Notes under the pieces: generated by a model
The model's database searches: none
What the model saw: only the letters and a program-made list of their open reading frames with translations
Told to the model about the DNA's origin: nothing
Origin: a virus
DNA length: 35,264 nt
Reading direction: 5' to 3' (one strand)
IMG/VR virus record: IMGVR_UViG_3300009702_000012
Coordinates: 1 to 35,264 of that record
In this document: piece after piece, positions 81-30,600 of the stretch
How the letters are laid out: each line of letters opens with the position of its first letter
Position numbering within the stretch: the stretch's first letter is position 1
Program-made: the position numbers and the translations under genes

Positions 81-1328
81 ACTCAAACATACCCCACAGA
101 CTTAACCGTAGAAGGTCAAGGAACTGTGGTTACTTCGTTGGCTGGTTCCACCCTAACCATATCTGGTATTGCTGGGACTGCTGGTGGCGGAAATCCCGTT
201 GATAGTCGTGCTGCTACCGGAGATATTATCCCTGACACTAATCATATTTATGATATAGGTAATGATGGTTCTGGATGGAATAATGTATATGCAAATAGTG
301 GTACTTTTAGTTCTGGTTTTATTGCTGGTTCTGGTCAAGTAATCGGAGAATTAGTAGTTGGAGATGTTACCAACTCCGTTAGAATAAATAAAAGTACCCG
401 TTCTATTGAGTTCTACGAAGGCGCCATTAAAAGAGCATTATTATTTGACGGTGGATTAGAATGGAAAACTGGTGCTTATGTATTATGGGGAAGTGATGCA
501 AAACTAAAACGTAATGCAGAGAATGATTTACTTATTGAAAATGGAGCCGGAGTAAGTGGAACGTTCACAGGAGGAAGTGGCGTTTTTGCTAAACAGGTCA
601 CCATTTCTGGTGTGAATGTTGGGGATTATTTAAGCACTACCGCAGGTGGCGCAGATGGCTCGGGTGTTGGTTCAATCATCGCTTCTGGAAGCACCATCTA
701 TCCAAGTGACCTAACAGTTGATGGGGCAGGAACGGTCAAAGTAAGTGTGGCTGGCTCCACGATGACCATCTCCGGCATAGCAGGTGCTGGTGGTGGCGTA
801 ACTGACCACGGATTACTGACTGGTCTCGCAGACGACGACCACACACAGTATCTACTGCGGGCAGACTTTGCGGCATCTGGAAATAACGGCGGTGTCCCGC
901 TTTCAGGAACTACCGTTGGAGCCGCGTCCCAAATGTATATCAGCGGTGTCGCTGTTGGAGATTTCTTGGGCGGGGGCGGCGGAACATCAAACGGCTCCGG
1001 CGTAGGCTCAATCATTGCGTCAGGAAGCACCATATATCCATCAGACCTAACCATTGCTGGTGCTGGCACTGTTACGGCAAGCGTGGCTGGCTCAACTCTA
1101 ACCATATCTGGTATTGCGGGCGGAGGCGGAAGCGGAAGCCCAGTTGATAGCCGCGCGGCAACCGGAGATATCTTGGTTGATACCAGCGGTGCCTATATGC
1201 TCGGCTCAAAGGCTAAACCATTTGCGTCAGGTGCTTTTGATAGCGTGGTTCTTCTCGCAAGTGGAGATGGGAGCGCTTGGAGAATGCGCGTTAACACAGA
1301 CGGCTCACTTTATACGGAAAGTATCTAA
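1..1328 (+). CDS. Tail fibre-like protein, C-terminal portion (continuation of 33531..35264 across the junction; joined ORF 2982 nt / 993 aa)
   Basis: The frame with codons at 3,6,9... is open from base 1 to TAA 1326-1328. It is in phase with 33531..35264 once the 80-nt overlap is removed. Contains Gly/Ser-rich repeated modules and a DHGLLTGLADDDHTQYLLR motif near 804. Confidence 0.8.
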   Translation, partial: NVGDYLSPTAGGGSDGSGIGSVISSGTQTYPTDLTVEGQGTVVTSLAGSTLTISGIAGTAGGGNPVDSRAATGDIIPDTNHIYDIGNDGSGWNNVYANSGTFSSGFIAGSGQVIGELVVGDVTNSVRINKSTRSIEFYEGAIKRALLFDGGLEWKTGAYVLWGSDAKLKRNAENDLLIENGAGVSGTFTGGSGVFAKQVTISGVNVGDYLSTTAGGADGSGVGSIIASGSTIYPSDLTVDGAGTVKVSVAGSTMTISGIAGAGGGVTDHGLLTGLADDDHTQYLLRADFAASGNNGGVPLSGTTVGAASQMYISGVAVGDFLGGGGGTSNGSGVGSIIASGSTIYPSDLTIAGAGTVTASVAGSTLTISGIAGGGGSGSPVDSRAATGDILVDTSGAYMLGSKAKPFASGAFDSVVLLASGDGSAWRMRVNTDGSLYTESI

Positions 1329-3398: not shown

Positions 3399-4256
3399 AT
3401 GACCAAGAAATTGAAGAAGGTCACCCGCACGTGTCAAGTGTGCGGTTTAGAGAAAGACCGAAGAGGCGGCTACTATAAGGATAATAAAGAAGTCTGCCGA
3501 AAATGCGTAAATGCCGGCAAAAACGCTAATCCATTCAATCTGACCGAAGCCGACATCAAATATTATAAGAAAAATGACCCAGCGGCGTTGGAGCAACTCC
3601 TCAAGATAAGTTCCACCGGCGCTTTTCTTTTTCAGCCACAGGACTATCAGCGTCAATTCTTCGCCGATATTGAAGCCCATACCTATCGCCAATATTTGGT
3701 GACTGCCGGCAACCGATTAGGCAAGAGCCAATCCGTAATGTGCGCACTCGCTCGCATTGCGCTAACCACCAAAAATCTAAAAATAGTGGTGGTAACCAAC
3801 ACCTATGCGACCATATCTCAGGTCATAGTCCCTAAACTTTTCAAGGATTTCCAGTTCAAGATACCCAAGAAGGGCCTGACAGGCTATCAGGCTTACCAGG
3901 ATGGCGCCTGGGGACCGCCACTAATCCCCCAAGAGTTTATCCGTGAGTTCCATAAGGGACGCTCAGGGATGGACCTGGTGGTTCTGACGAACGGCACCGA
4001 GATACGCGCAATCCCCGCATCAGCCGAAACAGCAGATAGATTTCAAGGCTGGGTAGCAGACTATGTGTTTTTAGATGAGGCGTTGCCACCTGGAACTAAC
4101 GGGATGCTTGCGGAATCCAAACACGCTTGCTGGATAGGGATGGCTCGCTGGTATGTAGCGCGACATTCTTGGATGCATCTCAGGAAATCATTGACTGGTT
4201 CGTCGATATTGAGGATGGAGTTATCCCAAATTCCCATAAATATAAATGGGGATTGA
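3399..4256 (+). CDS. terL: Terminase large subunit, N-terminal part: Zn-ribbon plus ATPase domain (frame broken near 4121)
   Basis: CQVCG..(18)..CRKC zinc ribbon; Walker A-like AGNRLGKS; Walker B DYVFLDEA. The last ~45 codons of this ORF look like out-of-frame read-through. Confidence 0.8.
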   Translation: MTKKLKKVTRTCQVCGLEKDRRGGYYKDNKEVCRKCVNAGKNANPFNLTEADIKYYKKNDPAALEQLLKISSTGAFLFQPQDYQRQFFADIEAHTYRQYLVTAGNRLGKSQSVMCALARIALTTKNLKIVVVTNTYATISQVIVPKLFKDFQFKIPKKGLTGYQAYQDGAWGPPLIPQEFIREFHKGRSGMDLVVLTNGTEIRAIPASAETADRFQGWVADYVFLDEALPPGTNGMLAESKHACWIGMARWYVARHSWMHLRKSLTGSSILRMELSQIPININGD

Positions 4257-5098
4257 GTGATGCTAACCATATAAGCGAAGAAATGAAGCAGAGGTTCCGC
4301 GCAACCATCCCGAAACACCTGCTGGGCGTCAAAACTGAGGGCGAATTATCAGCGCGAGCAGGGCTCGTTATCCCTAAATATCGGGATGCTGTAATAACGG
4401 CGCAGGAATGTCCCATTTTATACCGGCAAAGTGGACACTGGATTATTGACCGCAGGTGCGAGATTATCGTTGGAATTGACCCGGGCGGCGGAAAAGCAAG
4501 ATTTGGGATAGTGATGTGTGCGATAAACGCAGAAAACCGCAATGCCTACTTTATTGATAGCGATTATACTGAGGCTAACCAAACGGTAGAAAAGGCCGCC
4601 AAAAATATAGCCAGACTGTGCCAACGCTGGCACATTCCCAAGAAAAACGGCATTACGCGCATAGTTATGGATTGCGCCACTGACCGCGGCCCACTCGGTA
4701 GCCTCAAGGTAGAGATGAGTAAATGGCTCAAACACTACGGCATACGCGCTTCTAACACAGGAACAGGCGTCATTTCCGCAGAAAAGATGGGGAAAAATGG
4801 CGCGCTGGATAAAATGCGTCAGACTTTCGAGAGTGGGCGGGCATTCTTGGTGAAAAACCGCTGCACCAAACTCATCAAAGAACTTTCCTATTATAGTTGG
4901 GATGCGAGAACCGGTAAACCCAAGAAGCGCGGCTACATTGACTGCTGCGATGCGACACTCTATATCTGTAATCTAATACCAAAATCCAAGAAAGCCAAAC
5001 ACTGGACCCGAACCGACTATGTGGAAGAATTCTTCCAAGAAGCGAAGAAGCGGAGATTGCGCGAAAAACGGCGCGAACTGGGCCAAACAGAATTTTAG
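4127..5098 (+). CDS. terL: Terminase large subunit, C-terminal part: coupling motif plus RNaseH-like nuclease domain (frame open from 4100)
   Basis: LVCSATF (ATPase coupling motif position). IIVGIDPGGGKARFGIV, VMDCATDRG and YIDCCDATLY are acidic nuclease-fold motifs. The frame is -1 relative to 3399..4256. Confidence 0.8.
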   Translation: MLDRDGSLVCSATFLDASQEIIDWFVDIEDGVIPNSHKYKWGLSDANHISEEMKQRFRATIPKHLLGVKTEGELSARAGLVIPKYRDAVITAQECPILYRQSGHWIIDRRCEIIVGIDPGGGKARFGIVMCAINAENRNAYFIDSDYTEANQTVEKAAKNIARLCQRWHIPKKNGITRIVMDCATDRGPLGSLKVEMSKWLKHYGIRASNTGTGVISAEKMGKNGALDKMRQTFESGRAFLVKNRCTKLIKELSYYSWDARTGKPKKRGYIDCCDATLYICNLIPKSKKAKHWTRTDYVEEFFQEAKKRRLREKRRELGQTEF

Positions 5099-5141: not shown

Positions 5142-5759
5142 ATGAAAACCTGTAATTCCTGCGGAAAGAAAAAGCCGCTAACCGATTATTCGCCCAAACA
5201 GGGCAGATGTAAGAAATGCCGGGCTACCATAGCAAAAAAGCGCTACTGGCTCAATCCAAAGGGCATTCATACGGATAAAAGAACATTTATGGGCCGCGTA
5301 AATAGGCTTATCGGCAACTGGAAAAAACACGTCCTAAATCTGGGCGGCGGCTTTCTCCCACGCAAAGCACGCCAACGGGCGCGCAAAGTATTCGGGCGGC
5401 TCCTAAAAAGCCATACTTATAGGGATATCCTCATTGCTCTCCTGAATTATCCCGAGAAATTTCACTGGTTCTCCAATAAAAGCATTGGTTTCTATCATAT
5501 GGTCATCAATGAGTGTAAAGTTGCGTCAGACTATCTTAGACCACAGAGTGGTCCAAGACACCTTGGCGGGGACAGCCTTTTCGCCGCTGTCCCGGCTAAA
5601 AAGGAAATTATGAAAAGAGGAAGCCGAGAAGAACGGGAATATAGAGAAAAATGGCTGTTGAAGAGGCCTACTAATCAAAAGTCAAGTGGGCAAGAGACTA
5701 ATTTCATTGATAATGGGCTCAGTCAGTGGTTAACGATGCCCGTGTTGCGGCTTTCCTGA
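5142..5759 (+). CDS. Zn-ribbon protein, basic, unknown function (205 aa)
   Basis: N-terminal CNSCG..(15)..CKKC. Lys/Arg-rich. First gene of the methyltransferase block. Confidence 0.6.
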   Translation: MKTCNSCGKKKPLTDYSPKQGRCKKCRATIAKKRYWLNPKGIHTDKRTFMGRVNRLIGNWKKHVLNLGGGFLPRKARQRARKVFGRLLKSHTYRDILIALLNYPEKFHWFSNKSIGFYHMVINECKVASDYLRPQSGPRHLGGDSLFAAVPAKKEIMKRGSREEREYREKWLLKRPTNQKSSGQETNFIDNGLSQWLTMPVLRLS

Positions 5760-5765: not shown

Positions 5766-6707
5766 ATGAGCTTCCAAGATAAACAGCAGGCGTTTCTTGC
5801 TTCCATCAAAAATAAGAATGGAAAATATAAGCGTGTAATCAGTTCTCCTCTGAGATATGCGGGCGGTAAAACTAATGCTGTCGGCTTTATTATTGAAGCC
5901 CTGCCTCCTATCGACAGACTAATATCTCCATTTTTAGGTGGTGGTTCGGTTGAGTTCGCCATCAATAAAATATTCGATATTCCAGTTATAGGCTATGATA
6001 TTTTTGATATTTTGATAAATTATTGGGTGTGGCAAATTAATAGCCCAGAAATATTGGCTATGGGCTTATCTAAATTGACGCCAAATAAAGAAACTTATGC
6101 TAAAATTAAAGAGCGGCTCAAAAAACATTGGAATAAAGAGATAGCACTTAATTCGTTGGAATTAGCCATACATTATTTTTTTAATCATAATCTATCATAT
6201 GGACCAGGATTTTTAGGCTGGCCTTCAAGCGTTTATATGAACCAAAAGCGCTATGATGCTATATTAGAGAGAGTGCGAACATTCAAAGCATCTAATTTTG
6301 AAGTAAAATGTGGAAGTTTTGAACAGGTTTTTCAGCGTTATCCTAATGATTGCTTTTATTTAGACCCGCCCTATTTACTTAACGAAGACGCAGAAGAAAT
6401 ATTAGGTAGACCTGATAAAGAAAATAAAATGTTTCGCGGTATTTATCCTATGAGAAATATTACCTGTCATTCAAGAGGCTTTAATCATAAGTTATTGGCG
6501 CAATTAATCCATAACCATAAAGGCCCAGTCATTCTATCCTATAATAATTGCGAAGCAGTCCGCAAGTTATATGATGGTTTCGAGCAATCCTTCCCATCTT
6601 GGTCTTACACTATGGGGCAGGGAGAAACACGCATTGGTAAAAATCGCATAGAAGCAGGTAATACCCATATTAAAAAATCTCACGAAATTATTATCAAAAA
6701 AAACTAA
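5766..6707 (+). CDS. dam: DNA N6-adenine methyltransferase, Dam / D12 class (alpha group)
   Basis: LRYAGGK N-terminal motif, motif I SPFLGGGSVEF and motif IV FYLDPPY, in the order I then IV. Confidence 0.9.
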   Translation: MSFQDKQQAFLASIKNKNGKYKRVISSPLRYAGGKTNAVGFIIEALPPIDRLISPFLGGGSVEFAINKIFDIPVIGYDIFDILINYWVWQINSPEILAMGLSKLTPNKETYAKIKERLKKHWNKEIALNSLELAIHYFFNHNLSYGPGFLGWPSSVYMNQKRYDAILERVRTFKASNFEVKCGSFEQVFQRYPNDCFYLDPPYLLNEDAEEILGRPDKENKMFRGIYPMRNITCHSRGFNHKLLAQLIHNHKGPVILSYNNCEAVRKLYDGFEQSFPSWSYTMGQGETRIGKNRIEAGNTHIKKSHEIIIKKN

Positions 6708-7738
6708 TGGAACATAAGACAACTCATAAAATTTATTTTAGCAATTCTCAAAAAATGGAAGATGTTCCTGATGAGAGCGTAAATCTTATTATCACGTCTC
6801 CAATATATCCAATGATAGAAATGTGGGATAAACAGTTTAGTCTAATGAATAAAAAAATTGCGAAAGCGATAGAAGAAGAAGATGGCGTAAAAGCATATGA
6901 ATTAATGAACATTGAATTAAACGCAGTTTGGAATGAATGTATTAGAGTTATGGCGCCGGGCGGTATTATCTGTATTAATATTGGTGACGCCACTCGAACC
7001 ATTGGAAAAAGATTTGCTGTCTATCCTAATCACGCAAGGATTATTGAGCATTTTATATCCTCAAAGTTAGATATGCTTCCCAGCATTATATGGAAGAAAA
7101 CCAGTAATAAACCGAATAAATTTATGGGTTCTGGAATGTTGCCAGTTGGTGCATATATTACAATGGAACACGAGCATATTTTGATTTTTCGCAAGAACCC
7201 AAGGCGCGAATTCAAAAATGATAAAGAGTTGCGGCGAAATAGCGCGTTTTTTTGGGAAGAACGAAATAAGTGGTTTAGCAATGTTTGGTCTGATGTCGGT
7301 GGAGTAAGGCAAAACATTACTTCCTATTCGAGAAAAAGGTCGGCAGCATACCACCTAAATATACCATTTCGCCTAATAAATATGTATTCCATATATGGCG
7401 ATACTATATTAGACCCATTTATGGGATTAGGCACCACAGCATTAGCCGCAGCCATTTCGGGCAGAAACTCCATAGGATATGAAATATGCCCAGAACTGAA
7501 ACCAGAAATTGATAATACGCTTCATCAGTGCGTAAAGTTATCGAAAGAAAAACATTTAGAGAGACTAAAATCCCACCATAACTTTATCCAAAACAGAATA
7601 AATGTAAAATATGTGCTTGAAGAATATGATACGCCAGTTATGACTAATCAAGAAACATCCATAAAATTATTTATAGCACAGAAAATAAAGAAAATTAGTG
7701 ACACCACATACAGTGTTCAAGGAAAATTAGGAGTATAA
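6707..7738 (+). CDS. DNA methyltransferase, beta-class N4-cytosine/N6-adenine family (N6_N4_Mtase type)
   Basis: Motif IV region DESVNLIITSPIYP comes first. It is followed by RVMAPGGIICINIGD and motif I ILDPFMGLGTTALAAAISGRNSIGYE. TAATG overlap with dam. Confidence 0.9.
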   Translation: MEHKTTHKIYFSNSQKMEDVPDESVNLIITSPIYPMIEMWDKQFSLMNKKIAKAIEEEDGVKAYELMNIELNAVWNECIRVMAPGGIICINIGDATRTIGKRFAVYPNHARIIEHFISSKLDMLPSIIWKKTSNKPNKFMGSGMLPVGAYITMEHEHILIFRKNPRREFKNDKELRRNSAFFWEERNKWFSNVWSDVGGVRQNITSYSRKRSAAYHLNIPFRLINMYSIYGDTILDPFMGLGTTALAAAISGRNSIGYEICPELKPEIDNTLHQCVKLSKEKHLERLKSHHNFIQNRINVKYVLEEYDTPVMTNQETSIKLFIAQKIKKISDTTYSVQGKLGV

Positions 7739-7739
7739 A

Positions 7740-8347: not shown

Positions 8348-8376
8348 TAAGCCTAATAGATGGCACGGAGAACCAA

Positions 8377-8880
8377 ATGAAAAAAAACATTATATTTTTA
8401 CTCGACGAGAGCGGCAGTATGTTCCACATTCGAGAGGAAACACTCAACTCCTATAAAGAATGGGCCGAACAGATGGGAGCGGAAGCAAACGGTGCTTTAT
8501 TCTCCCTATTCACTTTCAATGGAAAAGTCAAGACCGTTCAATGGAGAGAGCCACGCCCGCACACCATCAAATCCTATCTGCCGAACGGCTCTACGGCACT
8601 ATATGACGCGATTTTACGCGCAGTATTCTCCGTCCCTGATGGAGAAAACGCACTTCTAATCATTCTCACAGATGGTATGGAGAACAGCAGCCGCTATGGC
8701 GCTCACCAAGGCGTCAAAACTCTTCTCGATGACCGCATCGACGCAGGCTGGGAAGTATCCTATGTTGGTTGCGAGGCATTTCCTTCGCTGCCCCAAACCA
8801 CCACTTTCATATGGGATAAAAGTGATACCACTGCTCCTTGGAAAACCATATACACCACATCCACCAACTACCTAAAATAG
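8377..8880 (+). CDS. von Willebrand factor A (vWA) domain protein with intact MIDAS
   Basis: IIFLLDESGSM (DxSxS), GSTALYDAI (Thr) and IILTDGMENSS (Asp), in canonical order. GGAG SD. Confidence 0.8.
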   Translation: MKKNIIFLLDESGSMFHIREETLNSYKEWAEQMGAEANGALFSLFTFNGKVKTVQWREPRPHTIKSYLPNGSTALYDAILRAVFSVPDGENALLIILTDGMENSSRYGAHQGVKTLLDDRIDAGWEVSYVGCEAFPSLPQTTTFIWDKSDTTAPWKTIYTTSTNYLK

Positions 8881-8930
8881 TGCGAACCTTTCTTATACAC
8901 CTATTCATCTCTATTCGGTTCGAAAAGCAG

Positions 8931-9035
8931 ATGCTGCGCGACTTGATTGAAGCCGTTTATAAAGAAGACTTTGCGGCTGCTCGCGCAGTTATCACTAATA
9001 TTGAAGATTATCTCAATGAAAATCCTAATAGATGA
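8931..9035 (+). CDS. Possible small protein (34 aa)
   Basis: ATG 8931 in the 8838..9035 frame. Helical-looking MLRDLIEAVYKEDFAAARAVITNIEDYLNENPNR. Weak RBS. Confidence 0.3.
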   Translation: MLRDLIEAVYKEDFAAARAVITNIEDYLNENPNR

Positions 9036-9408
9036 CCGCGAAAAAAGACCTCTAGAGTTTATGTGCGAAACTGAACGCAAACGCCTCAAAACGGGCGATT
9101 ACGCACTCGCCGACCAACCAAATAAAGTCTGTATCGAAGCCAAACATAGCGTCGAAGACCTCTGCGCTTCTTTATGTTTAGCCAAAAGGCGCGCTCGCTT
9201 TCTAAAACTGGGGGAGCGCGCCGCTTCCTTCGAGCATCGCTGGTTGATTACGCCACTCATCGCGGACATTTTGCGCGGCACGCGCTATTCAAAAGTGCCC
9301 GGCCACGTTATTCTCCAAAAAACTATCGAATGGTGTGCCACTTACCACTTCATTCTATTAGCAGGCATCACAGCATCCCAACTTGAAAGGCAGATTGAAA
9401 AATTATGA
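9016..9408 (+). CDS. ERCC4 (XPF/Mus81/Hef)-like PD-(D/E)xK nuclease, putative structure-specific endonuclease (130 aa)
   Basis: ILIDDREKRPLEF, LKTGDYAL and IEAKHSVEDLCASL occur in ERCC4 order (D.RE ... GDY ... E[R>A]K....DL..S). The track start at TTG 8947 adds an implausible leader. Confidence 0.6.
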   Translation: MKILIDDREKRPLEFMCETERKRLKTGDYALADQPNKVCIEAKHSVEDLCASLCLAKRRARFLKLGERAASFEHRWLITPLIADILRGTRYSKVPGHVILQKTIEWCATYHFILLAGITASQLERQIEKL

Positions 9409-9542
9409 TTATTAAGAAAAAGAAAGGCTACTATGTAGTCTCCGAAAGAACTCATCGCAATCTCGGTGGCCCATATAAGACCAAAGCAGAAGCATTGCGC
9501 CGTCTAAAAGTCGTAGAATATTTCAAGCACCATAAAAAATGA
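9405..9542 (+). CDS. Small basic protein (45 aa), not in the supplied ORF track
   Basis: ATGA overlaps at both ends (9405-9408 and 9539-9542). MIIKKKKGYYVVSERTHRNLGGPYKTKAEALRRLKVVEYFKHHKK. Confidence 0.5.
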   Translation: MIIKKKKGYYVVSERTHRNLGGPYKTKAEALRRLKVVEYFKHHKK

Positions 9543-10093
9543 TTGAAGTAATAGCAGACCACCTAGAAATCAATCAAATTGGGTGGGCGCCCTACATAAA
9601 AGCGCGCACTTTGCCGCTAAAACTTTACACCATCAAGAGCGGGAAGCAGGTTCGCCGCTCACTCCTCACAGGAGATGTAGCCAGCCCTGATGATAGTTGG
9701 GTCATAGAAATAAAGCGAAACGCCAAAGATTTTCTGCTATCTTTCACAGATGGCGGTCATTTTAATAACCTCAAGAGCGAAGGTAAGCATATGATGTGCT
9801 ATAAACATCGCTTTATCCTAATATATCCTGAAAAACGCCAAATAATGTTAGAAGCCAGTCATTTAGGACTAAACGCCGCATCCGCATTTAGAAATCTAAA
9901 GAACTGGGTCTCCTATAATGTAATAGCGCCGCCCTATTTCAATGTGAATGATGAAGATTTATGCCAACTCATCCTATATTTGGCTCAAGGAAGCGGGGAA
10001 AATCGCCGAGATAACCTAACATATCCAGCCTTTCCCGACCGAGAATGTCTACCAGCCCAAGTCAAAAAGACTAGAAAGGAAGCGGGATTTTAA
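9539..10093 (+). CDS. Second, degenerate ERCC4-like nuclease-fold protein (184 aa)
   Basis: LLTGDVAS and VIEIKRNAKDFLLSF have the same spacing as the 9016 protein, but the N-terminal D.RE is replaced by ADHLE. Confidence 0.5.
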   Translation: MIEVIADHLEINQIGWAPYIKARTLPLKLYTIKSGKQVRRSLLTGDVASPDDSWVIEIKRNAKDFLLSFTDGGHFNNLKSEGKHMMCYKHRFILIYPEKRQIMLEASHLGLNAASAFRNLKNWVSYNVIAPPYFNVNDEDLCQLILYLAQGSGENRRDNLTYPAFPDRECLPAQVKKTRKEAGF

Positions 10094-10434
10094 TGTGGGG
10101 ACGCAGCAAACCACGCCAAAGGAAGGAATTTCGAGAGAAAGAACTGAGATTGGTGAAAAATATAGAAGAAAAAGACGCTATTATCGCCCGTAATGAAGAG
10201 GAAATAGCGGATAAAACCTTCATAATAAAGTGCGAAATGGAAATTTCAAACATATTATTTCAATGTTTTCTAGAATATAAGCGGGGTGGTCGAACTTTGG
10301 CTGTCAGGATAGAAACCGACTATGTAGTGAGAGAACTCGCGCGCTACTTTAATACCATCACGGAGGTCGAACGGCACCTTTTCAATATTATTCTAGTGGA
10401 ACATCCTAATGCCTTGAGGGGTTCTAATGTATGA
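10093..10434 (+). CDS. Hypothetical early protein (113 aa), N-terminal basic coiled-coil
   Basis: TAATG overlap with the upstream gene. No motif recognised. Confidence 0.6.
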   Translation: MWGRSKPRQRKEFREKELRLVKNIEEKDAIIARNEEEIADKTFIIKCEMEISNILFQCFLEYKRGGRTLAVRIETDYVVRELARYFNTITEVERHLFNIILVEHPNALRGSNV

Positions 10435-10723: not shown

Positions 10724-10895
10724 AACCTATAAATGTGCCGATTGCGGCAAACCATACTCTCGGGAAACATTTTACGCGCATTACTTTTATGTGTGTAAGG
10801 ACTGCTATAAAAAGTCCCTTAAAAAGTATCAGCAACAGCGCGAAGAAAGGCTTCGCCAAGCAATAGAAAGATTTGAAAATGGAAATGATGAATGA
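10692..10895 (+). CDS. Zn-ribbon protein (67 aa), TTG start
   Basis: The only in-frame start is TTG 10692, 5 nt after GGAGG (10682-10686). CADCG..(17)..CKDC. Confidence 0.55.
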   Translation: MKSRGTPPNPETYKCADCGKPYSRETFYAHYFYVCKDCYKKSLKKYQQQREERLRQAIERFENGNDE

Positions 10896-11124: not shown

Positions 11125-11344
11125 CCGCGAATACACGGCAAATAAAGCCTATTGGATAGCCAAAGAGCATCACCAACGGATTATTATCGAGAACATTGAT
11201 AAGGCCGCACAGGACGGCAAAATGAGCATCGAATTCAAGAGATTAGGCGACGAACACGCCGAATACCTAACCAGCAAAGGGTTCAAGATTATCCAGAGAG
11301 GTGACACATATGCGGTATCCTGGGATATATCCAAAACTTCATAA
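11108..11344 (+). CDS. Hypothetical early protein (78 aa), paralog of 10427..10723
   Basis: Shared C-terminal motif ending in (I/V)SW(N/D)..K(T/S)S. Confidence 0.6.
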   Translation: MDTKSSREYTANKAYWIAKEHHQRIIIENIDKAAQDGKMSIEFKRLGDEHAEYLTSKGFKIIQRGDTYAVSWDISKTS

Positions 11345-11567
11345 TCTAATAGGGCAAGTTGCCGCCAAACTCCATAATCTAAATGAAGATGCTTATCAAG
11401 AAGCGGAGATAGGGCTGTGGAAAGCAGGTATCCCAGAAGATGCCGAACCTACGGCCCTAATTCGCACCATTATCCGCAACTCTATTATAGATTGGATACG
11501 CAAAGATTATAGAAGTAGGTGGGGAATTCGTCAGGTCGAGCAAGAAATCCAGAAACGCAGAAAGTGA
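11301..11567 (+). CDS. Sigma-70 region-2-like protein lacking region 4 (85-88 aa; start GTG 11301 or ATG 11310)
   Basis: NEDAYQEAEIGLWKA...ALIRTIIRNSIIDWIRKDYRS matches the region 2.1-2.4 pattern (D..QE....LW.......W....i.rN..iD..R). The protein ends about 20 aa later. Confidence 0.65.
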   Translation: MTHMRYPGIYPKLHNLIGQVAAKLHNLNEDAYQEAEIGLWKAGIPEDAEPTALIRTIIRNSIIDWIRKDYRSRWGIRQVEQEIQKRRK

Positions 11568-15976: not shown

Positions 15977-16330
15977 ATGCTAACACCACGAGACACCCAT
16001 TATTTAGTCGGCGCCACAGAAGAACAGCGTAAAGAATACTTGCGCCTGCGTTCCAAAGGTGCGTCAGAAAACTGGGCGTCTATGATGGCCTTTCGAAGTT
16101 GCCCTACTGTGCGTGTTCAGCACGATTTTTATGATACCGCTCTTGGATGTATGGTTTCTGGGAAAAATGACCAGGAAAAACGCGTAAAAGAACTGCGCGC
16201 CCGTGGTTATGATGTATTGCCTAAAAGGGAAGGTATTGAAGCCGCCCGAGCAAAAGAAAAGCCCAAGATAACCAATAAGCATACCGAAGAGTTGAAACGT
16301 ATTATTAAGGAAGAAACCTATGGCGAGTAG
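15977..16330 (+). CDS. Hypothetical protein (117 aa)
   Basis: ORF between the hairpin and the portal-like gene. No motif recognised. Confidence 0.6.
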   Translation: MLTPRDTHYLVGATEEQRKEYLRLRSKGASENWASMMAFRSCPTVRVQHDFYDTALGCMVSGKNDQEKRVKELRARGYDVLPKREGIEAARAKEKPKITNKHTEELKRIIKEETYGE

Positions 16331-18149
16331 AAACACGCGGCGCCGCATAGCAAAGTTTTATAGTAGCATAGCGGCCAGATGGGACAGTGTTTTATCATAT
16401 ACCGAAAAACACGAGAATTATCGACGGTGGATAGAAGACGCCGAAGAGTGCTATGGTTTTTATCACGGAGTAGATGATGATAACCCAGGCAGATTTTTTG
16501 GCGTAGGATTGCGCGACGAACCAGAGATGATACGCACCAACCCGTTCAAAGTAACAGTTAATAAAGTATCGGAGTTTGCGCGCATCGTCGAGCCAGAACT
16601 GTATAACCGAGACCCGGTTGCTACGGTGTTGCCGCGCCGAACATCCCCAGCGGGCGCAGACCAACTATCCGAAATCCTGGAAGATGTCCTTTCCTACTAT
16701 ATGGAAATGATGGATACTTTCGCAGAGCGGCGAGCGGCAATTAAAGATGCGCTAATAACTGGAAGGGGCATAATCCATAATAAGCTGCTAAAATCTCCAT
16801 TTATGCCTATTGAAGAACACGTCTCCTATAAAGACTTTATGTGCGACCCAGATGCGCGCCACTACAGAAACATTACTTGGATGGCCCGCAAACATCAAAC
16901 GCCAAAAGTAGAACTTATCAAAATGTTCGGGAATAAAGCCGACCGTTTCTTCTCCAATAAATATACGCCGAATGAGCTTATTGAATGGTATGAGATTTAT
17001 GTTAAAGGCGGCATCTATGCTGGCCTAAATAATGAAGATACTGACATTGAGTTAGTCGAAAAGTTTGAGGATAAGTTTGGCACCAATGTAAAGATTTCTC
17101 TTATCCGCGCGCCAACCGCCGAAAGAAATAACGTCGATTATAATGAACACGTTTCCAAGATTGGCCCATACATCTTAGATATTGGGGATTGGGACATTCC
17201 ATTTTATGAGAATGTCGAGCAGCGCAACGCGTGGCCATTTACGCTCATTGACCTATATCCCAAGACGGTCACTGTCTATCCTATGTCGCCCATCAAACCG
17301 GCTCTTCCAGAACAGCGAGCCATCAACTGGGCGTTTATCTTCCTCCTAAATGCTATGCTAAACACTTCGCGTGGTATTATTCAACTACATCCAGACGTTG
17401 AAGAAGAAGATATTGAGCGTATCAAGAACTCAATGAATTTCTCTATCATTGCGGGAAATGAAGCGTTCCAAGAAAGTTTCAAGAAACTATCGCTTAAACA
17501 GGATAACTCTTCTCTTTGGAATGAGTTTTTTATGATAAGTAATATGTTTGATATGCGCGTTGGCCTAACAGATATGCGAAGTGCCATTTCTGGTGCCGAA
17601 GCACGTAGCGCCACAGCCACTCAATCCAAAGAACGCATCGCCAATAAAACTGTTGACGCTTTCTTTTCCGTAGTTACGCGCGCTTTCACCGAAACCACGC
17701 GCAAACTGGCGTTTACGCTTCGCACGCTTTCTTCGACCAAAGACATTGAAAGCATAGTTGGCCCTGAAGAAGCAATGTTTTGGGAAGAGTATCATTCTTA
17801 TTATAATGAGAACCCCATCTATGATTTAGATGTAACCATCTGGGCTGATGGAATGAGACGGCCAAATAGGAGCCAAATGGCACAGGAGAGTTTCACGCTA
17901 TTCGAGACTGCTGCGCAGATTGGCGGCCAACTCCAAGATATAGACATCATCAACCATTATTGGGCTAACCTACATAAGAAACTTGGGATACCACCTAATG
18001 AGTTAAGGCTGTTTGCTTTACCACCGCAGCCTGCTCCACAGGAGATGCCTCCACAGGAGGCGGCACCCGCTCAGGATGACGCAGAAGCCCGCGCCGCAGA
18101 TATTATCAGCCAACTACCACAGGATGTTCAGGTGACCACAGATGAGTAG
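16320..18149 (+). CDS. Putative portal protein (609 aa)
   Basis: Size is right. The N-terminal ...ECYGFYHG segment resembles portal ..fy.G motifs. The C-terminal tail is Pro/Gln/acidic (PPQPAPQEMPPQEAAPAQDDAEARA). Lies in the head-gene neighbourhood. Confidence 0.55.
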   Translation: MASRNTRRRIAKFYSSIAARWDSVLSYTEKHENYRRWIEDAEECYGFYHGVDDDNPGRFFGVGLRDEPEMIRTNPFKVTVNKVSEFARIVEPELYNRDPVATVLPRRTSPAGADQLSEILEDVLSYYMEMMDTFAERRAAIKDALITGRGIIHNKLLKSPFMPIEEHVSYKDFMCDPDARHYRNITWMARKHQTPKVELIKMFGNKADRFFSNKYTPNELIEWYEIYVKGGIYAGLNNEDTDIELVEKFEDKFGTNVKISLIRAPTAERNNVDYNEHVSKIGPYILDIGDWDIPFYENVEQRNAWPFTLIDLYPKTVTVYPMSPIKPALPEQRAINWAFIFLLNAMLNTSRGIIQLHPDVEEEDIERIKNSMNFSIIAGNEAFQESFKKLSLKQDNSSLWNEFFMISNMFDMRVGLTDMRSAISGAEARSATATQSKERIANKTVDAFFSVVTRAFTETTRKLAFTLRTLSSTKDIESIVGPEEAMFWEEYHSYYNENPIYDLDVTIWADGMRRPNRSQMAQESFTLFETAAQIGGQLQDIDIINHYWANLHKKLGIPPNELRLFALPPQPAPQEMPPQEAAPAQDDAEARAADIISQLPQDVQVTTDE

Positions 18150-22977: not shown

Positions 22978-24620
22978 TGCCCTATCCAGAATTTGACCCT
23001 AATGCTATTATGGCTTCGCCGGAGTTTCAAAAAGCGGCAAATAAGTTAGCCGAAGGTGACCCCAGCAAGTTAGTCTCTGTTAGAAAATATTTACTTGGAA
23101 AACTTCAACAGCGTTATAGCGAAGATAAGAGAATGGCGGCCAAAATTCCTTTCGGCGGACAGCCTACTCTCTCAAGAAGTATGGGAGATGTGCTCGCTGG
23201 GCGGCCAGCCACCCCGCCAGCGGCAGGACCAAACCTAAATGATATTGCTGCTCGCACCCAAGTTCCTACGGCTCCTATTGATGCTGGTGCCGAACTTATG
23301 CCGCATACATCGGTGAATTATCAGCGGTTGCTTCAAGGATTGCGCGATGGAATGGATAATCAGTCCGCACTTATCGCCGCAACTGAACGGCGTGTGCTTC
23401 CAAGAGAAGTGGTAACTGACATTTCAGCCGGTGTTCCGCTACGGGCGGCTATGTCTGCCTTTGAAAAGAAGCGCACTTTGACAGGGCCAAGCGAAGCAGA
23501 AAGAATGGCTGCGTTTGGAGCGGCATTACCAGTAGAGAGACCTACTTTTGGCGGAGATAGTTTTACTGCCGAAGGCATAAGACCATCAGACCCAGGATAT
23601 TATAAGCCAAATTTGCCTAACGCAGAACCAGGTTATGCGGAATCAGATGTTAATGCTATCTTAAATCCAGCAGCACCTGTTTCACCCGAATATGCGGCAG
23701 CCAGAAAAAGAGCATTAAATATGCTGCGGCGACAGGTTCACGGTGAAGAAGTCGATAGAACACAGCGTATAGCAGATGCGGATACATTACGCAAAGAGCA
23801 AAAAACAGCACGCGATATTCAAGCAGGTATTGGTGAAATAGATAAAGTGAATATTAAAGCATTGATGGCCGAAGCCCAAAAGAACCTTAAAAAGGCAGGT
23901 GTCAATACAGAATCAGATTTAACACCAGAGCAAAAAAGAACCCAGGCTGTTATTGATAAATTAGGTATGAGAGAAGAGTTGAAAAACTTAAATCCAGACC
24001 AACCAATAGATACGCAAGAAATAATAGCGCAAAAACTTCAAGAACGCGGCGTAAGTGATAATACTGCTAAGGCATTAGAAAAAACATTCTCTACTTTAAC
24101 AGAACTTCCAAGATTTTCAGAAGATGATATGATGACTTTTCAACGTCCAAATAGTGGGGAAAAGGTATTAGAGTTGGTTCAATCAGGAAAACCAATCGAT
24201 ACATTATTAAAGGTATTAGATAATCAAATAGGTTATAGAAGTAAATTTGCAGCACGCGGTTCCAGTATATTACCACTTATGCCATCTTATGAAAAATACT
24301 TAGAAAAAATATTATATGGCTCTACTATGCAGGGTGACCACCTAATGAAAAAGCAAATTTATCCGGCCATTGATAGGATGATTGATACTGTGATGAATGG
24401 TGGTTATTATCCAATAGAAGTTATTAGCGCTTGGAATAAAGTTGCTGAAAAAGTATTAGATGAATATCCAGATAGAGCAAAAGCAGATATTCAAAATAGA
24501 ATTCAAGACAGAATTAGATATTATTATAGCGCATTAATATCTGGAAAAATACCTTCCGCTCTTACGAAAACATCTGATGCGGTAGAAAATATCTTAAATC
24601 CAAAGAAGCAAAATGCCTAA
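22977..24620 (+). CDS. Putative internal core protein (547 aa)
   Basis: Position is analogous to T7 gp15, directly before the giant ORF. Confidence 0.4.
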   Translation: MPYPEFDPNAIMASPEFQKAANKLAEGDPSKLVSVRKYLLGKLQQRYSEDKRMAAKIPFGGQPTLSRSMGDVLAGRPATPPAAGPNLNDIAARTQVPTAPIDAGAELMPHTSVNYQRLLQGLRDGMDNQSALIAATERRVLPREVVTDISAGVPLRAAMSAFEKKRTLTGPSEAERMAAFGAALPVERPTFGGDSFTAEGIRPSDPGYYKPNLPNAEPGYAESDVNAILNPAAPVSPEYAAARKRALNMLRRQVHGEEVDRTQRIADADTLRKEQKTARDIQAGIGEIDKVNIKALMAEAQKNLKKAGVNTESDLTPEQKRTQAVIDKLGMREELKNLNPDQPIDTQEIIAQKLQERGVSDNTAKALEKTFSTLTELPRFSEDDMMTFQRPNSGEKVLELVQSGKPIDTLLKVLDNQIGYRSKFAARGSSILPLMPSYEKYLEKILYGSTMQGDHLMKKQIYPAIDRMIDTVMNGGYYPIEVISAWNKVAEKVLDEYPDRAKADIQNRIQDRIRYYYSALISGKIPSALTKTSDAVENILNPKKQNA

Positions 24621-27600
24621 AACATTTCTAAATAACCCAATTTCCATAGAAGAAGCATCTAAACCTGAGCCATTTCATTATTCTCAGGGCTTCTTAGGTA
24701 ATTTAGGTTTCGTCTTAAATAGACCCACTAAAGGTGTTCAAGATTTACTTTCTGGACACCCTGGCCGTGCCGTAGCCAATATAGGACAGTTCTTCGCTGA
24801 ATTAGCAACACTTGGTTATGCCCCTAATAATCTTTTGATAGATGAAAAGGATGACCAACAGTGGGGATTGCTTGCCGACATCTTTCTTGACCCACTTCTT
24901 TATGTGGGACTGCCTACCAACGCCATTGAAAAGGTGGGCGTTAAAACGGCAGGTATGCTTGATAAAGTATTGGCTGCAGGAAGCAAAGGCATTGAGAGTG
25001 TCTCAGAAATCAAGAGAGGCTTACAGGTTGCTTTACAGGACACAGCTCACGCATTAGTCAAATATCGCACGCCGCAACTTGCTAAAAGTTTAGGGATTGT
25101 CGGCGAAGATACGGCCAAAATGGGCGCCAAAGTTGCCGAACTCCTAAAAGAAGATGTTGATAGACTTTTCAGAGAAGGTCTCAAGCCTACCGGTAAAGAA
25201 TTAGTAAGCAATGTGGCTGAGAAACTTTCGAGTAAAACTGCTATTCCTGGCATTATCAAGCCAGCATTTCACGCTGGCGGCACCACGTTTGGTTTCGACC
25301 AGATTGCGGCCCTTCTATCACTTGACCTATTTGGCTTGGTGCCTAAACTAACTGGTGGAAGAAGTTTGCGCTCTGCGCTATCTTGGCTGATAACACCATT
25401 AGAGTTCAGCAAAGAAGTTCCTATTCTTGGTAAAGGTATTCCTGTTGGAATTGCTTCTGAACCCATCGCTAAATTGCTCGGCAAAACAGGAAAAGTTGCT
25501 GGAAAAATACCTACTGCTGGACCAGCATTGGAAGGCTTATTTAGCGGCCTATCTAAATACCTGAAAGTTTTAACCACAGCCCGAAGTGGCCCTGGACGCA
25601 TCGCCCTATCTGACTTTACATATAATTTGCCCCCATTCCTTCTAATGAAGAATATAGTGGCTGGTCCCATAGGGCGCGCAACAGCAAAAGCATTCTCGAA
25701 GAATAAAGCAGAGACTGAGATTGGAAACAGGCTGACACACCGCTACTTCATTGACTTAGCAGGCTCTCACCAGCAGGCACAGCGTGATTTAATTGAGGCT
25801 CTTACTATTGACGGCAAAGTTATTCCAGTTGAAGAATATCAAAAATACGCTGATATTTATGGTAAAAAAGTAGTTGATTTCTTACAGCAAAAGATGGATG
25901 AAGTAGGTATTAAGCAGACCATTTATACGCCTGAAATTGCTAATGAAGCCAACCGAATTGCTATGGAAGGTATGCCTGAATGGTTTGGTAAAGCAAGAAG
26001 TAAAATTGAAAGAAAACTTCAAGGTTTGGCTGGTATATCTCAAAAAGGCAAAGCACTCCAAGGATATTCTTTTAATGATAATGGTAGAGTTATTATTAAT
26101 GCTATTAATGATGCGATTGATGTGGCTAAAAACCCAGCAGGACGCATCAAACATACTTTCATTAATGAACTTTTGGGAAAGTATTTAGATGCTGGTCAAC
26201 CCGTTACAGCGTTTAGATATTTTACGCTCCACGAACATCCGTTTGAACTCTTAAATGCCGAGGGTGAGACCATCTCCGCCATAAAAGGCCTGAATGATTT
26301 AGTTAAACACGAGATACAGAAGATTGCTGATAAATATGGTGTTAAACTTGAAGAGTTAGGAAACATTGGTCCTATTATTGAGGAGGAGCAGGCAGCGACA
26401 TTAATGCGCACATCGGTTAATAGAAATAAAGATATAGCGCTAAATAGATTAATCGATGAAAGCAAAGATAAACTTGGCACCAAATTATCATCTGCTATTG
26501 AGGCTTGGCGTTTTAATGTTCCGCAACTTCAAGAAGGCGCGCAAACTTTCGAACCAACTATGGAAAGAGTTGGTAGCATCATAAATGACATCAAAGAAAG
26601 AGCGGATGTGTTGCGTGACCCAGAAGTGGCGCGGCATTTCCAGCAAAGATTGGCTACTGCGTTAAGAGCCACCGATAAGCCAGAACTTGCTAATTTAATT
26701 GAAAATATTCCAGACGGCAAAACTTTATTAAGTAAAGTTAAAGAGATGGAAGCCGAACTTCCAAATCTTGGCGAGCAGTTAAATATTACTGCCCCAGCCA
26801 AAAAATTAACATTAAAAGATAAAGAAATTCAGTTTAGAAGTAAAGAGCATAAAGGCCCTGGCACACCACATTTCAACGCAGGAGATGCCGAAGTTTGGCG
26901 TGAAGCCAATGATGCGCAGAAATACGGCGATTCTTTTCTATCGAATAAGATTTATGATGAGTATAAGAAAGCAGGAATACACACGCCAGAAGGTAAAACC
27001 TATGGAGAGATTACGCGAGCCACAGCGCGTCTTGCTGAAATCATCAAAATAAATAAAACACTATCACAGGAACCATTCCAGCATGTAGCCGAAATGGATA
27101 GCCTAACCAGCATTATCCGCGATGGTATTAAGAAGTTAGTTGGTGGAGCAGGAAAAGAAACCGCAAATCTATCTAAACTGCGCGCACCGCAAGTTATTCA
27201 GGGCGAGATACGCCAACTATCAGAGGAGTATAAGGCGCTGGATAAGTTTAGCCCGCAGCGTAAAGAAATCTCCAAAAAGATAGGAGAGTTGGAACACGAA
27301 CTCAAAGACTCGATTGCGGAGCAGAAACAGGGCAAGCGCTTTGGTCCTGGCACGCCTAAATATCGGCCTGATGACTTTGAAGAAATGCCGCTGAAAAATG
27401 TAACTATTGGGATGTTAAGAAAACTGCGCGAAAATGACTTTCCATTTATAGTGCGCGTTCCAAAGGGCGGCTATGATGCGGCGCTTAAAGCAGGCGTCAA
27501 ACCAAGCGAGATGGCTCTTGAACCCATTACAGCCGATGAGATGCTGAAACTCAAGCAGACCATAATGAAACGTTTAGAGGGCAAGAAAGAAGCGCCCGAC

Positions 27601-30600
27601 CTATTTAAGAATATGAGCGGCAGAACTCTTGAAAGCAAAGCCAATAATATTAGGGAGAGACTGAATAAAACAGACTTAGGAAAGATTGAAAGAGCGCAAC
27701 TTGAAGCAGACCTAATACGCACGCAAAATGAATTAAAAGGGCGTCCTATTGACTTGAAGAAAGATTTAGAGTTTGGCGCCAAAACTGTCTATAGAGAAGC
27801 AGATAAAGCAGCGCGCGAATTATTCCCTGACGCACCCATCAAAACACTTTACCAACATCCACAGTTGAAACCACTCGGCAGAAAACTGAATGAACTTTCT
27901 GACGCTTTGGAAACTGGCGAAGAGGCCGCTGTAAATACAGCCATAGATGGTGTAAAGGCAGAAATCAAAAAACTCGGTGCTGATTTAGATAAACCACATT
28001 ATGGGCCTGGAACACCAAACGCCAAATATGTCGAGCAGAGATTAGGGAGAAAACTCAAAAAAGAAGAGAAGGCCGTCCTAACCGAAATTATCTTCCGCAC
28101 CACAGAAGGAACACCAGAAGCGATAAAGCGCGCCTATAAGAAGATTGCCGAAGTTTCAAAGACTGATATGGCGTTCGCGCAATCCCTAACTACCGAAATG
28201 GTGAAGCGTGGGCAGTTTGCCGACAAAACGCATAAAATGGCGTGGGTCAATCTTATTAGGCAAGTAGAATTGAAGAAAGCATATAAGCACGCACGCGCCG
28301 TTGAAAAGGGCGCCTTTGACCTACTTGAAAAAATGGAAAAGGATGCGGGCTTTTTCGGTCAGGCTCAAAAGAAGTTCTTTGATTATGAAAAAAGATTGAA
28401 GAACAGCGCCGAAGTTAAAAAGTATGAAAACCTACTTCACTTACGCGTTCAATCAACAGATACCGCCGCTATGCTAAAATGGGAGATGGATAATCTCGGT
28501 GGATTGCGACTATCCCACGATGTTATTTCTCATCCCTATTTGGCTGTTCAACCATTAATTGCCGGAGAAGACCTAACTCGAATGAGAAAGTATCTGGAAA
28601 CTCTCCAAGGTAAAATGGAGTATATCAACTATAACTTGGACTTGGTGCGCCGAGCAGACATAGAAGTCCGTCGCGTAGGAAGCACTATGCTTCCCGATGG
28701 TGGTGCTATTGAGCCTATTATGGGACCAACATTCCACCACACTACCAAGTTTAAGTATGTCCGCAAACAGGTCAGCGAAATTAGACGGCTGCTAAATACA
28801 TCTATCAAAAATGGTGGCTTTGGACCAACCGCAAAAATTTTAGTCAGCAAAAAAATGCAGATGCTGGAAGACTTTGAGGCTTTATTCAAAGTAGCAGTTA
28901 GAAATCGCGCAACAGCAAAAGCCGTTGAAATAATGGCGGACTATACCGATTTAGCAAAGAATGTAGCCGAGCAGTTAGCCAGAGAAGGAAAGAAATTTGG
29001 CTCTCGGGTGATTAGACCACCTTCTACTGAATTTTTGAGAGGGTTTAAGAAGTTAGTCGAAACTCCCAAACAGTCTGTTGCCGAAATGGCTAAAACATTA
29101 GCCGAAACTAAACTTCCAAAGGCTATTCAGGATGTCTTGGATAAAATCCCTGAGAAAGATAAGTTAGCAGAAGAAGCAATCAAGAGATTAAATCTTGATA
29201 AGTTGATAAAGAAAACCGACGATATTGAAGCGGCTCTTAAATCTATGGGCGTAGATGTTGCTAAAATAAGACCTGAGATGGCTATCGAAGCCGAAAAATC
29301 ATATGCTATTAAAGAAATAGAAAGAGCAATGAAGTCGGGTGATGTTGGCGGCGATTTAAGCCTGGCTATCTCTAAACGCAAGAGAGCAGAGAAAATTCTA
29401 ACCCAACTCGAAAAGGGAGGGGCGGAAGCAAGCCGTATAAGTAAGCAAAAAAGTATTATAAAAGATTTAGATGAAGAAATCAAAGATATTATCAAGTCTT
29501 CTAAATCAGGCATCCGAAAAGGCGTAGGTATTTCTCAGTTAGAAGCAATGGCGAAAGACATCAACGCATTAGAGAAAGCGGGAGATGTTGAAAAAGCCGC
29601 AGAACTTGAAGTCCACTATAATAAGTTAATCAAGTTAAGAAATGCTGTTTTTGCCAAGAAAATCCCATCGCGGTTCGTCAGAGAACAGAAGATTTATTAC
29701 GGCCTGTTTAATGAAGTAGATAATGCCGCAAATGCCGCAATACGCCGCCATCTTGAAAAGCCATTCGAGGCTATGGACGCTTTACTTGGTAAGCCAACCA
29801 CCTATCCAAAGGAAGCAATTGAAGAGTTTGCCGCCACCATTGAAGATGTAGTAGGCAAAGGTAGAAACGCTGATATTATGAAAGGTCTTTTACTTGAAGG
29901 TAAGACTGGAAGAGAATTGGCTAAAACCTATAAACTTGACCCATCAATGATAACGCGGGTGAAGAATAAGTATTTAGAAGATATTAAGTCTGAACTCTTC
30001 AAGAAAAATAATATTAGACTACGGAGAGGGGCAATCAAACCATCAACAGGTGAGTTTGCTGGCCCTAAATCCTATAAAAACCCAGCATTAGATGAAGCAA
30101 TCCATGACTTCAATAGGTATACCAACTATACCAAGAAATGGAGAGAAGAATTGCTGGCTGCCGTTAAAGATGGGACAGCCACACCAGAAGATATCAAAGC
30201 ATTCCATCAGGTTAGATTGAAGATACGGAGATTGCGTCGAAAGTTCGCTAAACACGCACGCTTTAATAACATCAAGTTAGAAACATCGCCGCGGACTATC
30301 CCTGGAAATACAGGGCCTGGAACAGCCGCAGCAAGAAAAATATCCAGTGTATCAAAACTTGACTTGCCGATGGATAGAATGCTCGAAGGATTTATTCGCC
30401 ACGAACGGGGAATAGGGATTAAAAAGCCTAATATTATTCAGCGCGGCATTGAAGCATTTGCGCGCGAATGGATGGGGCTACCATCTCTAATCAAGAGTGT
30501 TTCTATGGCGACAGCAAAAGGAGACCCAACCAAAGCAATCAAGATTTGGACGGACAGCAAATTCTTACGCAGCATCATAGAGAGTAATTTGGTTCAGCGT

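Follow-up and report, generated by a model that had tools for sequence, protein, structure and literature searches.

Nucleases of the XPF family bind metal and catalyse cleavage through the residues of a GDXn-ERK-X3-D motif (PMC6320978). The archaeal members XPF and Hef form homodimers; their nuclease domains themselves pair, and a single active site does the cutting. The eukaryotic XPF-ERCC1 complex is thought to stem from a duplication of XPF followed by subfunctionalisation (PMC2034474; PMC7048804). A 2012 census of PD-(D/E)xK enzymes lists ERCC4 as 'Archaea & Eukaryota' (PMC3424549). Here we analyze a complete 35,264-bp phage contig (IMG/VR record IMGVR_UViG_3300009702_000012, positions 1 to 35,264, hereafter the window), in which a short ERCC4-type nuclease gene, ORF1, is followed within one string of genes by ORF3, an extremely diverged gene that very probably encodes a protein of the same fold. 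It is possible, if somewhat short of probable, that the products of both genes form a heterodimeric endonuclease, and the residues that each protein has kept and lost are among the reasons for considering it.

The closest described relatives of ORF1 are short ERCC4 nucleases that phages and haloarchaeal viruses encode, proteins of 143-180 aa with PF02732 as their sole domain (PHROG 3490; for instance gp73 of Halorubrum tailed virus 25), with which it shares its length class, its single-domain build, the M-x-I-L-[IV]-D-x-R-E start, the GDY, ExK and S-x2-[DE]-L motifs and a conserved Trp. That family is single-copy in the roughly 165 loci sampled, whereas here an extremely diverged second copy follows, and the Arg of the ERK motif and a strand Glu, which the relatives nearly always keep, are replaced in both ORF1 and ORF3. 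Archaeal Hef and the Aeropyrum pernix XPF (1j22, 2bgw, 2bhn) are matched by the family profile and are the top Foldseek matches of a model of ORF3, but they are homodimers made from one gene that carry a C-terminal (HhH)2 domain and, in Hef, also a helicase; ORF1 and ORF3 have neither domain and are two genes. XPF-ERCC1 and Mus81-Eme1 resemble the pair in being composed of two paralogous, very unequally diverged ERCC4-fold subunits encoded by separate genes, yet they dimerise largely via (HhH)2 domains, which are absent from ORF1 and ORF3, and the catalytic residues kept in ORF3 are gone from ERCC1 and Eme1. Because it has no (HhH)2 domains and its second partner is not catalytically stripped, the pair falls outside the XPF-ERCC1/Mus81-Eme1 class as defined, and it may work in a similar way. 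Any likeness to the eukaryotic heterodimers would reflect an independent, convergent duplication.

Organization of the locus

The genes of the window are densely packed and almost all on the plus strand. The analysis concerns three consecutive open reading frames (ORFs):

9016..9408, plus strand: ORF1, 130 amino acids (aa), beginning MKILIDDREKRP; a stand-alone small ERCC4-type (XPF/Hef/Mus81-family) nuclease domain
9405..9542, plus strand: ORF2, 45 aa, very basic, located between ORF1 and ORF3
9539..10093, plus strand: ORF3, 184 aa; very probably a very diverged ERCC4-like domain (residues ~1-150), followed by a basic, low-confidence C-terminal tail (~153-184)

An earlier sequence-only reading of this DNA had described the trio as joined by ATGA overlaps. 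These were read directly from the sequence at 9405-9408 (ORF1/ORF2) and 9539-9542 (ORF2/ORF3), and independent gene calling on another public copy of the contig (Logan SRR6056608, 26 kb) returned the same three genes, which confirms both the coordinates and the overlaps. The stop codon of ORF3 in turn overlaps the following start (TAATG, 10091-10095). ORF1 and ORF3 are separate genes on the same strand, 131 nucleotides (nt) apart, within one tightly packed co-directional gene string. A promoter and terminator scan was otherwise indecisive and revealed no terminator-like site separating the three genes, its sole terminator-like match (9734-9756) being inside the ORF3 coding sequence. At 8931..9035 (plus strand), a 34-aa ORF shares 20 nt with the beginning of ORF1; it is a putative gene, called as such in the Logan copy.

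ORF1 and the short ERCC4 nuclease family

ORF1 carries the motifs D6-D-R8-E9, G27-D28-Y29 and E41-A-K43-x4-D48-L-x2-S52, the residues of which are encoded at the following positions:

9031-9042, plus strand: D6, R8 and E9
9094-9102, plus strand: G27-D28-Y29
9136-9144, plus strand: E41-A42-K43
9157-9159, plus strand: D48

It was on these motifs that ORF1 had been proposed to be an ERCC4-type nuclease, and profile searches agree with the proposal. Against Pfam PF02732 the protein scores 23.4 bits (E=6.1e-5), just below the 24-bit cutoff of the model, and it matches phrog_3490, the 'ERCC4-type nuclease' of PHROG, at E=5.7e-6. With tblastn it matches the 'ERCC4 endonuclease' of Halorubrum tailed virus 25 (E=1e-6) and also recovers the annotated ERCC4 endonuclease of Halorubrum tailed virus 27 and two human-gut phage scaffolds. 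A profile search at E<=1e-3 with the five sequences aligned (A1) returned 2478 proteins, which shows how widely such short nucleases are distributed among phages and archaeal viruses. Leaving ORF1 aside, the 119 relatives among the matches listed (alignment A2) each contain PF02732 and have lengths of 143-181 aa. Against a hidden Markov model (HMM) of the subfamily, built from 57 non-redundant relatives with ORF1 left out, ORF1 scores 94.4 bits from end to end (E=2.7e-31), and a search of the PDB with the family profile yields the Hef nuclease domain (1j22, E=8e-9) and the A. pernix XPF (E=1e-6). No (HhH)2 domain was found in ORF1, which stops at residue 130 with its nuclease domain and has no HhH match in Pfam. 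Judged from its sequence, ORF1 definitely belongs, as a fairly conventional representative, to the large family of short ERCC4 nucleases without (HhH)2. The extra residue between ExK and the following Asp, noted earlier in both proteins, is a common trait of that family, the same spacing being present in 81 of its 119 members.

Evidence for a remote ERCC4-like domain in ORF3

General searches leave ORF3 a complete orphan. A k-mer-indexed search of 5.8 billion proteins and an exhaustive phmmer search of 1.84 billion representatives returned only the protein itself; tblastn against phages and a search of PDB sequences gave itself or nothing; no model in Pfam, PHROGs, NCBIfam or PADLOC matches it; and BLASTP between ORF1 and ORF3 reports nothing significant (E=23). 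The evidence for an ERCC4-like domain comes instead from comparisons targeted at the family of ORF1. The motifs of ORF3 can be written as A-D7-H-L-E10, G45-D46 and E57-I-K59-x4-D64-F-x2-S68, and its core residues are encoded as follows:

9557-9568, plus strand: D7 and E10
9671-9676, plus strand: G45-D46
9707-9715, plus strand: E57-I58-K59
9728-9730, plus strand: D64

The GD...ExK core had been described as repeating that of ORF1 with identical spacing. This holds inside ExK-x4-D-hydrophobic-x2-S but not for the distance from GD to ExK, which is 13 residues in ORF1 and 11 in ORF3.

Two family HMMs, both built without ORF1 and ORF3, detect the protein. The HMM of 119 members scores it at 15.6 bits (E=5.5e-7, Z=1), aligning residues 52-148 with profile positions 56-151 and setting IEIK on iErK, while the HMM of 57 non-redundant relatives gives 16.9 bits (E=2.2e-7, Z=1) over residues 39-129, with LLTGD on LktGD. 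The register between ORF3 and the family is kept from TGD via ExK to the C-terminal helices, with more than 90 residues aligned. None of 3000 shuffled versions of ORF3 reached the real scores (maxima of 10.0 and 8.7 bits), and the reversed sequence scored -1.1 bits. In a control set of some 19,000 real ORFs, taken from the window and from about 220 fetched loci, all scores above 12 bits belong to the targeted ERCC4 genes or their fragments, and the best other score, ORF3 apart, is 11.0 bits. Local alignment with hhalign covers 124 columns (P=2e-4, probability 46%), and the weak phmmer matches of ORF3 in three sets of fetched loci include the ERCC4 genes of L076, L173 and L207. The suggestion that ORF3 is ERCC4-like is supported by these profile scores, which lie above all shuffles and ORF controls.

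The first ten residues of ORF3, MIEVIADHLE, lie outside both HMM alignments. MAFFT sets them without gaps on the M-x-I-L-V-D-x-R-E start of the family, placing D7 and E10 in the two invariant columns of Asp and of Glu/Asp, respectively, so that only the Arg differs. The N-terminal acidic motif had been considered lost on account of the reading ADHLE; with VIADHLE aligned gap-free to ILVDxRE, both D7 and E10 are seen to be kept. A regular expression for this start matches 149 of 190 family ORFs and only one of 11,462 non-family Met-starts (p ~1e-4). That single match, at 582..971 of locus L166, was rejected as a bearer of the motif, being a chance match at an internal Met.

An AlphaFold2 model of ORF3 computed with the family alignment has a predicted local distance difference test (pLDDT) score of 65 and a predicted template modelling (pTM) score of 0.61, with a confident core at residues 50-125. 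Its top match in the PDB by Foldseek is A. pernix XPF (E=2.8e-3, prob 0.98), and human XPF, Mus81-Eme1 and ERCC1 are also recovered; since the ERCC4 family was itself supplied as the alignment, we count this fold match as consistency only. Prediction from the single sequence was uninformative (pLDDT 40). The tail of the protein (residues 153-184) is predicted to be disordered, and no HhH model of Pfam matches ORF3.

Conserved residues in the two proteins

Conservation was counted over the 57 non-redundant relatives or, where indicated, over the 119 family members of A2:

D of DxRE: D in 57/57; ORF1 D6, ORF3 D7
R of DxRE: R in 56, K in 1; ORF1 R8, ORF3 L9
E of DxRE: E/D in 57/57; ORF1 E9, ORF3 E10
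G-D of GDY: G in 56/57, D in 57/57; ORF1 G27-D28, ORF3 G45-D46
Y of GDY: Y in 56, F in 1; ORF1 Y29, ORF3 V47
E of ERK: E in 54, D in 3; ORF1 E41, ORF3 E57
R of ERK: R in 56, K in 1; ORF1 A42, ORF3 I58
K of ERK: K in 57/57; ORF1 K43, ORF3 K59
Following acid: E/D in 119/119 of A2; ORF1 D48, ORF3 D64
Conserved Arg: 55/57; ORF1 R61, ORF3 N77
Conserved Glu: 54/57; ORF1 L65, ORF3 E81
Conserved Arg/Lys: 56/57; ORF1 R68, ORF3 H84
Strand Glu: 55/57; ORF1 absent (P80 region), ORF3 Y96
Trp: 115/119 of A2; ORF1 W106, ORF3 W123

The metal-binding and catalytic core of the fold, comprising the N-terminal D..E, GD, ExK and the following Asp, thus appears to be present in both proteins. ORF3 keeps every acidic ligand and the Lys (D7, E10, D46, E57, K59 and D64), and what it has lost are four conserved Arg (L9, I58, N77 and H84) and the Tyr of GDY (V47). 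This leaves the catalytic plus degenerate-partner logic that had been attributed to the pair unsupported, as only auxiliary Arg and Tyr residues are gone from the supposed degenerate member. Two losses that are rare in the family are common to ORF1 and ORF3. One is the Arg of ERK, which had already been noticed to be replaced in both (Ala42 in ORF1, Ile58 in ORF3) and which is Arg or Lys in all 57 relatives; the other is the strand Glu (55/57). Further losses are reciprocal: ORF1 keeps R8, Y29, R61 and R68 and has lost the conserved Glu (L65), whereas ORF3 keeps that Glu (E81) and has lost the corresponding Arg and Tyr residues. We infer that such a pattern would match a pair of mutually complementing subunits more closely than a live enzyme with a dead scaffold.

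Survey of ERCC4 loci

The rarity of the arrangement was assessed in a survey of every ORF within 3-4 kb of an ERCC4 gene in 72 IMG/VR, 80 metagenome and 13 genome loci, the IMG/VR loci representing 14 clusters at 60% identity. Split single genes aside, no second ERCC4-like ORF was found near the ERCC4 gene in any of the 72 viral or the 93 metagenome and genome loci, at thresholds that would detect a partner as diverged as ORF3 (15.6 bits) and would miss a more diverged one. The apparent second matches are the two halves of a single gene broken by a frameshift or by an in-frame TAG. With no second copy in about 165 sampled loci, the paired arrangement does appear to be as unusual in phages as the sequence-only reading had supposed.

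Split genes occur in a human-gut phage clade that comprises the 38-kb scaffold L001 and many contigs of ~140-190 kb, in which the ERCC4 gene lies in two pieces. The break was checked in L001 (2959..3528) and in L053, L056 and L058 (3965..4534), and it consists of a single in-frame TAG at codon 111; an ORF scan displays the same two-piece split in L144, L167, L168, L171, L177, L182, L183, L185 and L190. This suggests that the clade is composed of TAG-recoded phages. In L188 (1691..3001) and L189 (1892..3001), a long ORF directly upstream of the ERCC4 gene matches the ERCC4 HMM weakly (~11 bits, E ~0.1); this could reflect a very distant partner or simply noise. The genes directly upstream of ERCC4 in Halorubrum tailed viruses 25 and 27 (HRTV-25 gp72 and HRTV-27 gp74) were considered as hidden partners and rejected, as they give no HMM signal.

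The intervening gene ORF2

An unannotated ORF of Aeromonas phage 1233 shares 59% identity with ORF2 (E=1e-8), and the family of ORF2 has the consensus ..GGYxVVSxxGKNLGGPYxTKxxAxKRLxEVEYFKHxK. Relatives were found in 41 IMG/VR viral loci, either as stand-alone genes of 45-60 aa or as domains within larger proteins, and no ERCC4-like ORF lies within 2.5 kb of them in any of the 41. In one viral contig (L089, 2075..3310) the ORF2-like 'EVEYFKH' domain is N-terminal to a head maturation protease domain, and in other contigs it makes up the C-terminal part of 210-390-aa proteins. Since its family occurs in 41 viral loci without ERCC4, sometimes fused to a protease, ORF2 is probably not a dedicated third subunit of the nuclease, and that reading was rejected. 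ORF2 is a real conserved small gene and most likely unrelated to the nucleases.

A candidate heterodimer and its alternatives

The reading put forward here is that ORF1 and ORF3 form a heterodimeric structure-specific endonuclease acting on branched phage DNA, a proposal that we regard as possible and a little less than evenly poised. An ancestral homodimeric ERCC4 enzyme would have been duplicated and the copies would have diverged complementarily into ORF1 and ORF3, which would now work as a heterodimer; a dimer is postulated because every characterised XPF-family nuclease is one. Within the complex, ORF1 would supply most contacts to the DNA backbone and the active site would come from one or both subunits. 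The enzyme would cut flaps, forks and nicked or intact junctions arising from phage recombination or replication, so that branches would be cleared before packaging. In its most specific form, which we hold more tentatively and consider doubtful on balance, the phage would have re-invented the eukaryotic solution of the XPF family, turning a homodimer without (HhH)2 into an obligate asymmetric heterodimer by reciprocal loss of residues, with ORF1 as the canonical, DNA-binding subunit and ORF3 as an arginine-poor subunit that retains the active-site core. If so, the asymmetric complex would gain a substrate specificity or a two-site cleavage chemistry unlike that of single-gene phage enzymes.

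Several observations weigh against this proposal, plausible as it is. In known XPF-family enzymes the (HhH)2 domains provide much of the dimer interface and of the DNA binding, and they are missing from both proteins here. A gene from an unrelated family, ORF2, separates ORF1 from ORF3. About 20 gene junctions of the window have a stop codon that overlaps the next start; hence, the ATGA overlaps neither single out the three genes nor prove stoichiometry, the earlier contention that they imply stoichiometric co-expression does not follow, and translational coupling of ORF1, ORF2 and ORF3 is plausible without being distinctive. In the MAFFT alignment ORF3 is 17% identical to ORF1 and 13-25% identical to other members of the family, and since it is not measurably closer to its neighbor, tandem duplication is not established over separate acquisition. 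The HMM scores of ORF3 are modest and come from a hypothesis-driven, single-target test, so that they would not be significant database-wide, and the alignment-based model, with low confidence in the stretch 33-48 that contains the GD motif, is partly circular because an ERCC4 alignment was supplied. Literature searches found no biochemical characterisation of any short phage-family ERCC4 member. Finally, the HNH / endonuclease-VII-like gene that follows the terminase in the same window could be an alternative branch-cutting enzyme.

Some of these observations would sit comfortably with two independent ERCC4-fold nucleases, each a homodimer or a monomer, with different substrates or timing and brought together by duplication or by the clustering of small early genes. 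ORF3 has the full acidic and Lys core and so could act alone, the intervening ORF2 is unrelated and the overlaps are generic in this genome, and ORF3 is no closer to ORF1 than to the rest of the family. The loss of near-invariant residues in both proteins, partly in reciprocal fashion, is nonetheless easier to explain if each complements the other, and ORF3, minus four conserved Arg, looks ill-equipped to bind DNA alone; we therefore deem independence rather unlikely, at about one chance in every few. A further alternative, and a distinctly improbable one, is that ORF3 is not an ERCC4 homologue at all, its GD...ExK...D motifs and weak profile score being coincidental in some other fold, which would make ORF1 the sole nuclease. 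The blank results in Pfam, PHROG, NCBIfam, PADLOC and PDB sequences, the BLASTP value of 23, the pLDDT of 40 from the single sequence, the hhalign probability of 46% and the weak Foldseek E-values all speak for such a coincidence. It would have to account, however, for E-values of ~2-5e-7 (single test) with two family HMMs that neither 3000 shuffles nor ~19,000 non-target ORFs could equal, for an N-terminal motif that is independent evidence (p ~1e-4), and for the presence of ERCC4 genes among the best weak phmmer matches of an ORF located two genes away from a bona fide ERCC4 gene.

The substrate, rather than the fold, is at issue in a last alternative, according to which ORF1 and/or ORF3 would be counter-defence phosphodiesterases that degrade a cyclic di- or oligonucleotide immune signal instead of branched DNA. 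Its precedent is EP364R, an ERCC4-domain protein of African swine fever virus for which activity on 2',3'-cGAMP in eukaryotic cells has been reported (PMC9364804). Like the proteins studied here, EP364R is viral, short and built on an ERCC4 domain; in UniRef, some relatives of ORF1 within the short family bear the name 'ERCC4 domain-containing protein EP364R', and the fold matches in BFVD include EP364R models. In addition, the genes lie within a small early-type block near methyltransferases, and the loss of DNA-contacting Arg would suit a small-molecule substrate. Apart from the common domain, though, no specific sequence tie of EP364R to ORF1 or ORF3 was found, the fold matches are weak (E >=0.03) and PADLOC gives no match. 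Moreover, the family is found in the replication modules of other phages, as in L001, where a Pol III alpha-like gene and a ligase flank the ERCC4-family gene. Such an activity would seem a long shot for either protein.

Genomic context of the pair

Upstream of the trio lie a large terminase in two ORFs, an HNH endonuclease, two DNA methyltransferases and a VWA-domain protein. Downstream are small genes without assigned function and a protein resembling sigma-70 region 2, and then capsid, portal and tail genes and an ORF of 2464 aa. The main features are the following:

3399..4256 and 4127..5098, plus strand: parts of the large terminase, in different frames with an overlap of ~130 nt (phrog_2 250-372 ATPase, 458-597 nuclease)
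5142..5759, plus strand: HNH / endonuclease-VII-like gene, following the terminase
5766..6707 and 6707..7738, plus strand: two adjoining DNA methyltransferases, one of MethyltransfD12 type and one of N6_N4_Mtase type
8377..8880, plus strand: VWA-domain protein (PF00092; phrog_7371, E=4e-22), directly upstream of ORF1
11301..11567, plus strand: 88-aa ORF with a Sigma-70 region 2 match (PF04542, E=7.6e-7, above cutoff)
16320..18149, plus strand: portal protein, for which no relatives were found
24613..32007, plus strand: 2464-aa ORF in the structural module, with no PHROG match at E<=1e-3

The apparent split of the terminase could be programmed, or it could stem from a frameshift or from an assembly error. 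GC content falls to 0.337 in positions 6001-8000, against ~0.44 elsewhere. The 88-aa ORF may encode a minimal sigma-like factor of the phage. No ERCC4 gene was found beside homologues of the VWA gene in 11 viral loci. It had been stated that the phage encodes no recognisable DNA-metabolism genes; this is accurate for replication and recombination, no polymerase, helicase, primase or recombinase having been recognised in the window, but not for DNA metabolism at large, given the two methyltransferases, the HNH endonuclease and the large terminase. The lineage is a very isolated one, found only as this contig and the 26-kb Logan copy SRR6056608: tblastn detected no relatives of the portal protein in 50,697 phage records, none were found in IMG/VR, and no phage DNA matches positions 8000-12000.

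Implications

The family of ERCC4-type phage nucleases to which ORF1 belongs was already catalogued, and what is new here is its occurrence in tandem with an extremely diverged copy, together with the joint and reciprocal loss of residues in the two proteins. The practical importance of the finding is moderate, since the nuclease family is known and the functional claim is inferred. The case of ORF3 also illustrates that a fold can be assigned to a complete sequence orphan by means of a targeted comparison guided by a neighboring gene. Should ORF1 and ORF3 indeed form a heterodimer, they would provide a handle on the role of the short phage ERCC4 family and a compact, (HhH)2-free model of the step from homodimer to asymmetric heterodimer that has been proposed for XPF-ERCC1 and Mus81-Eme1.

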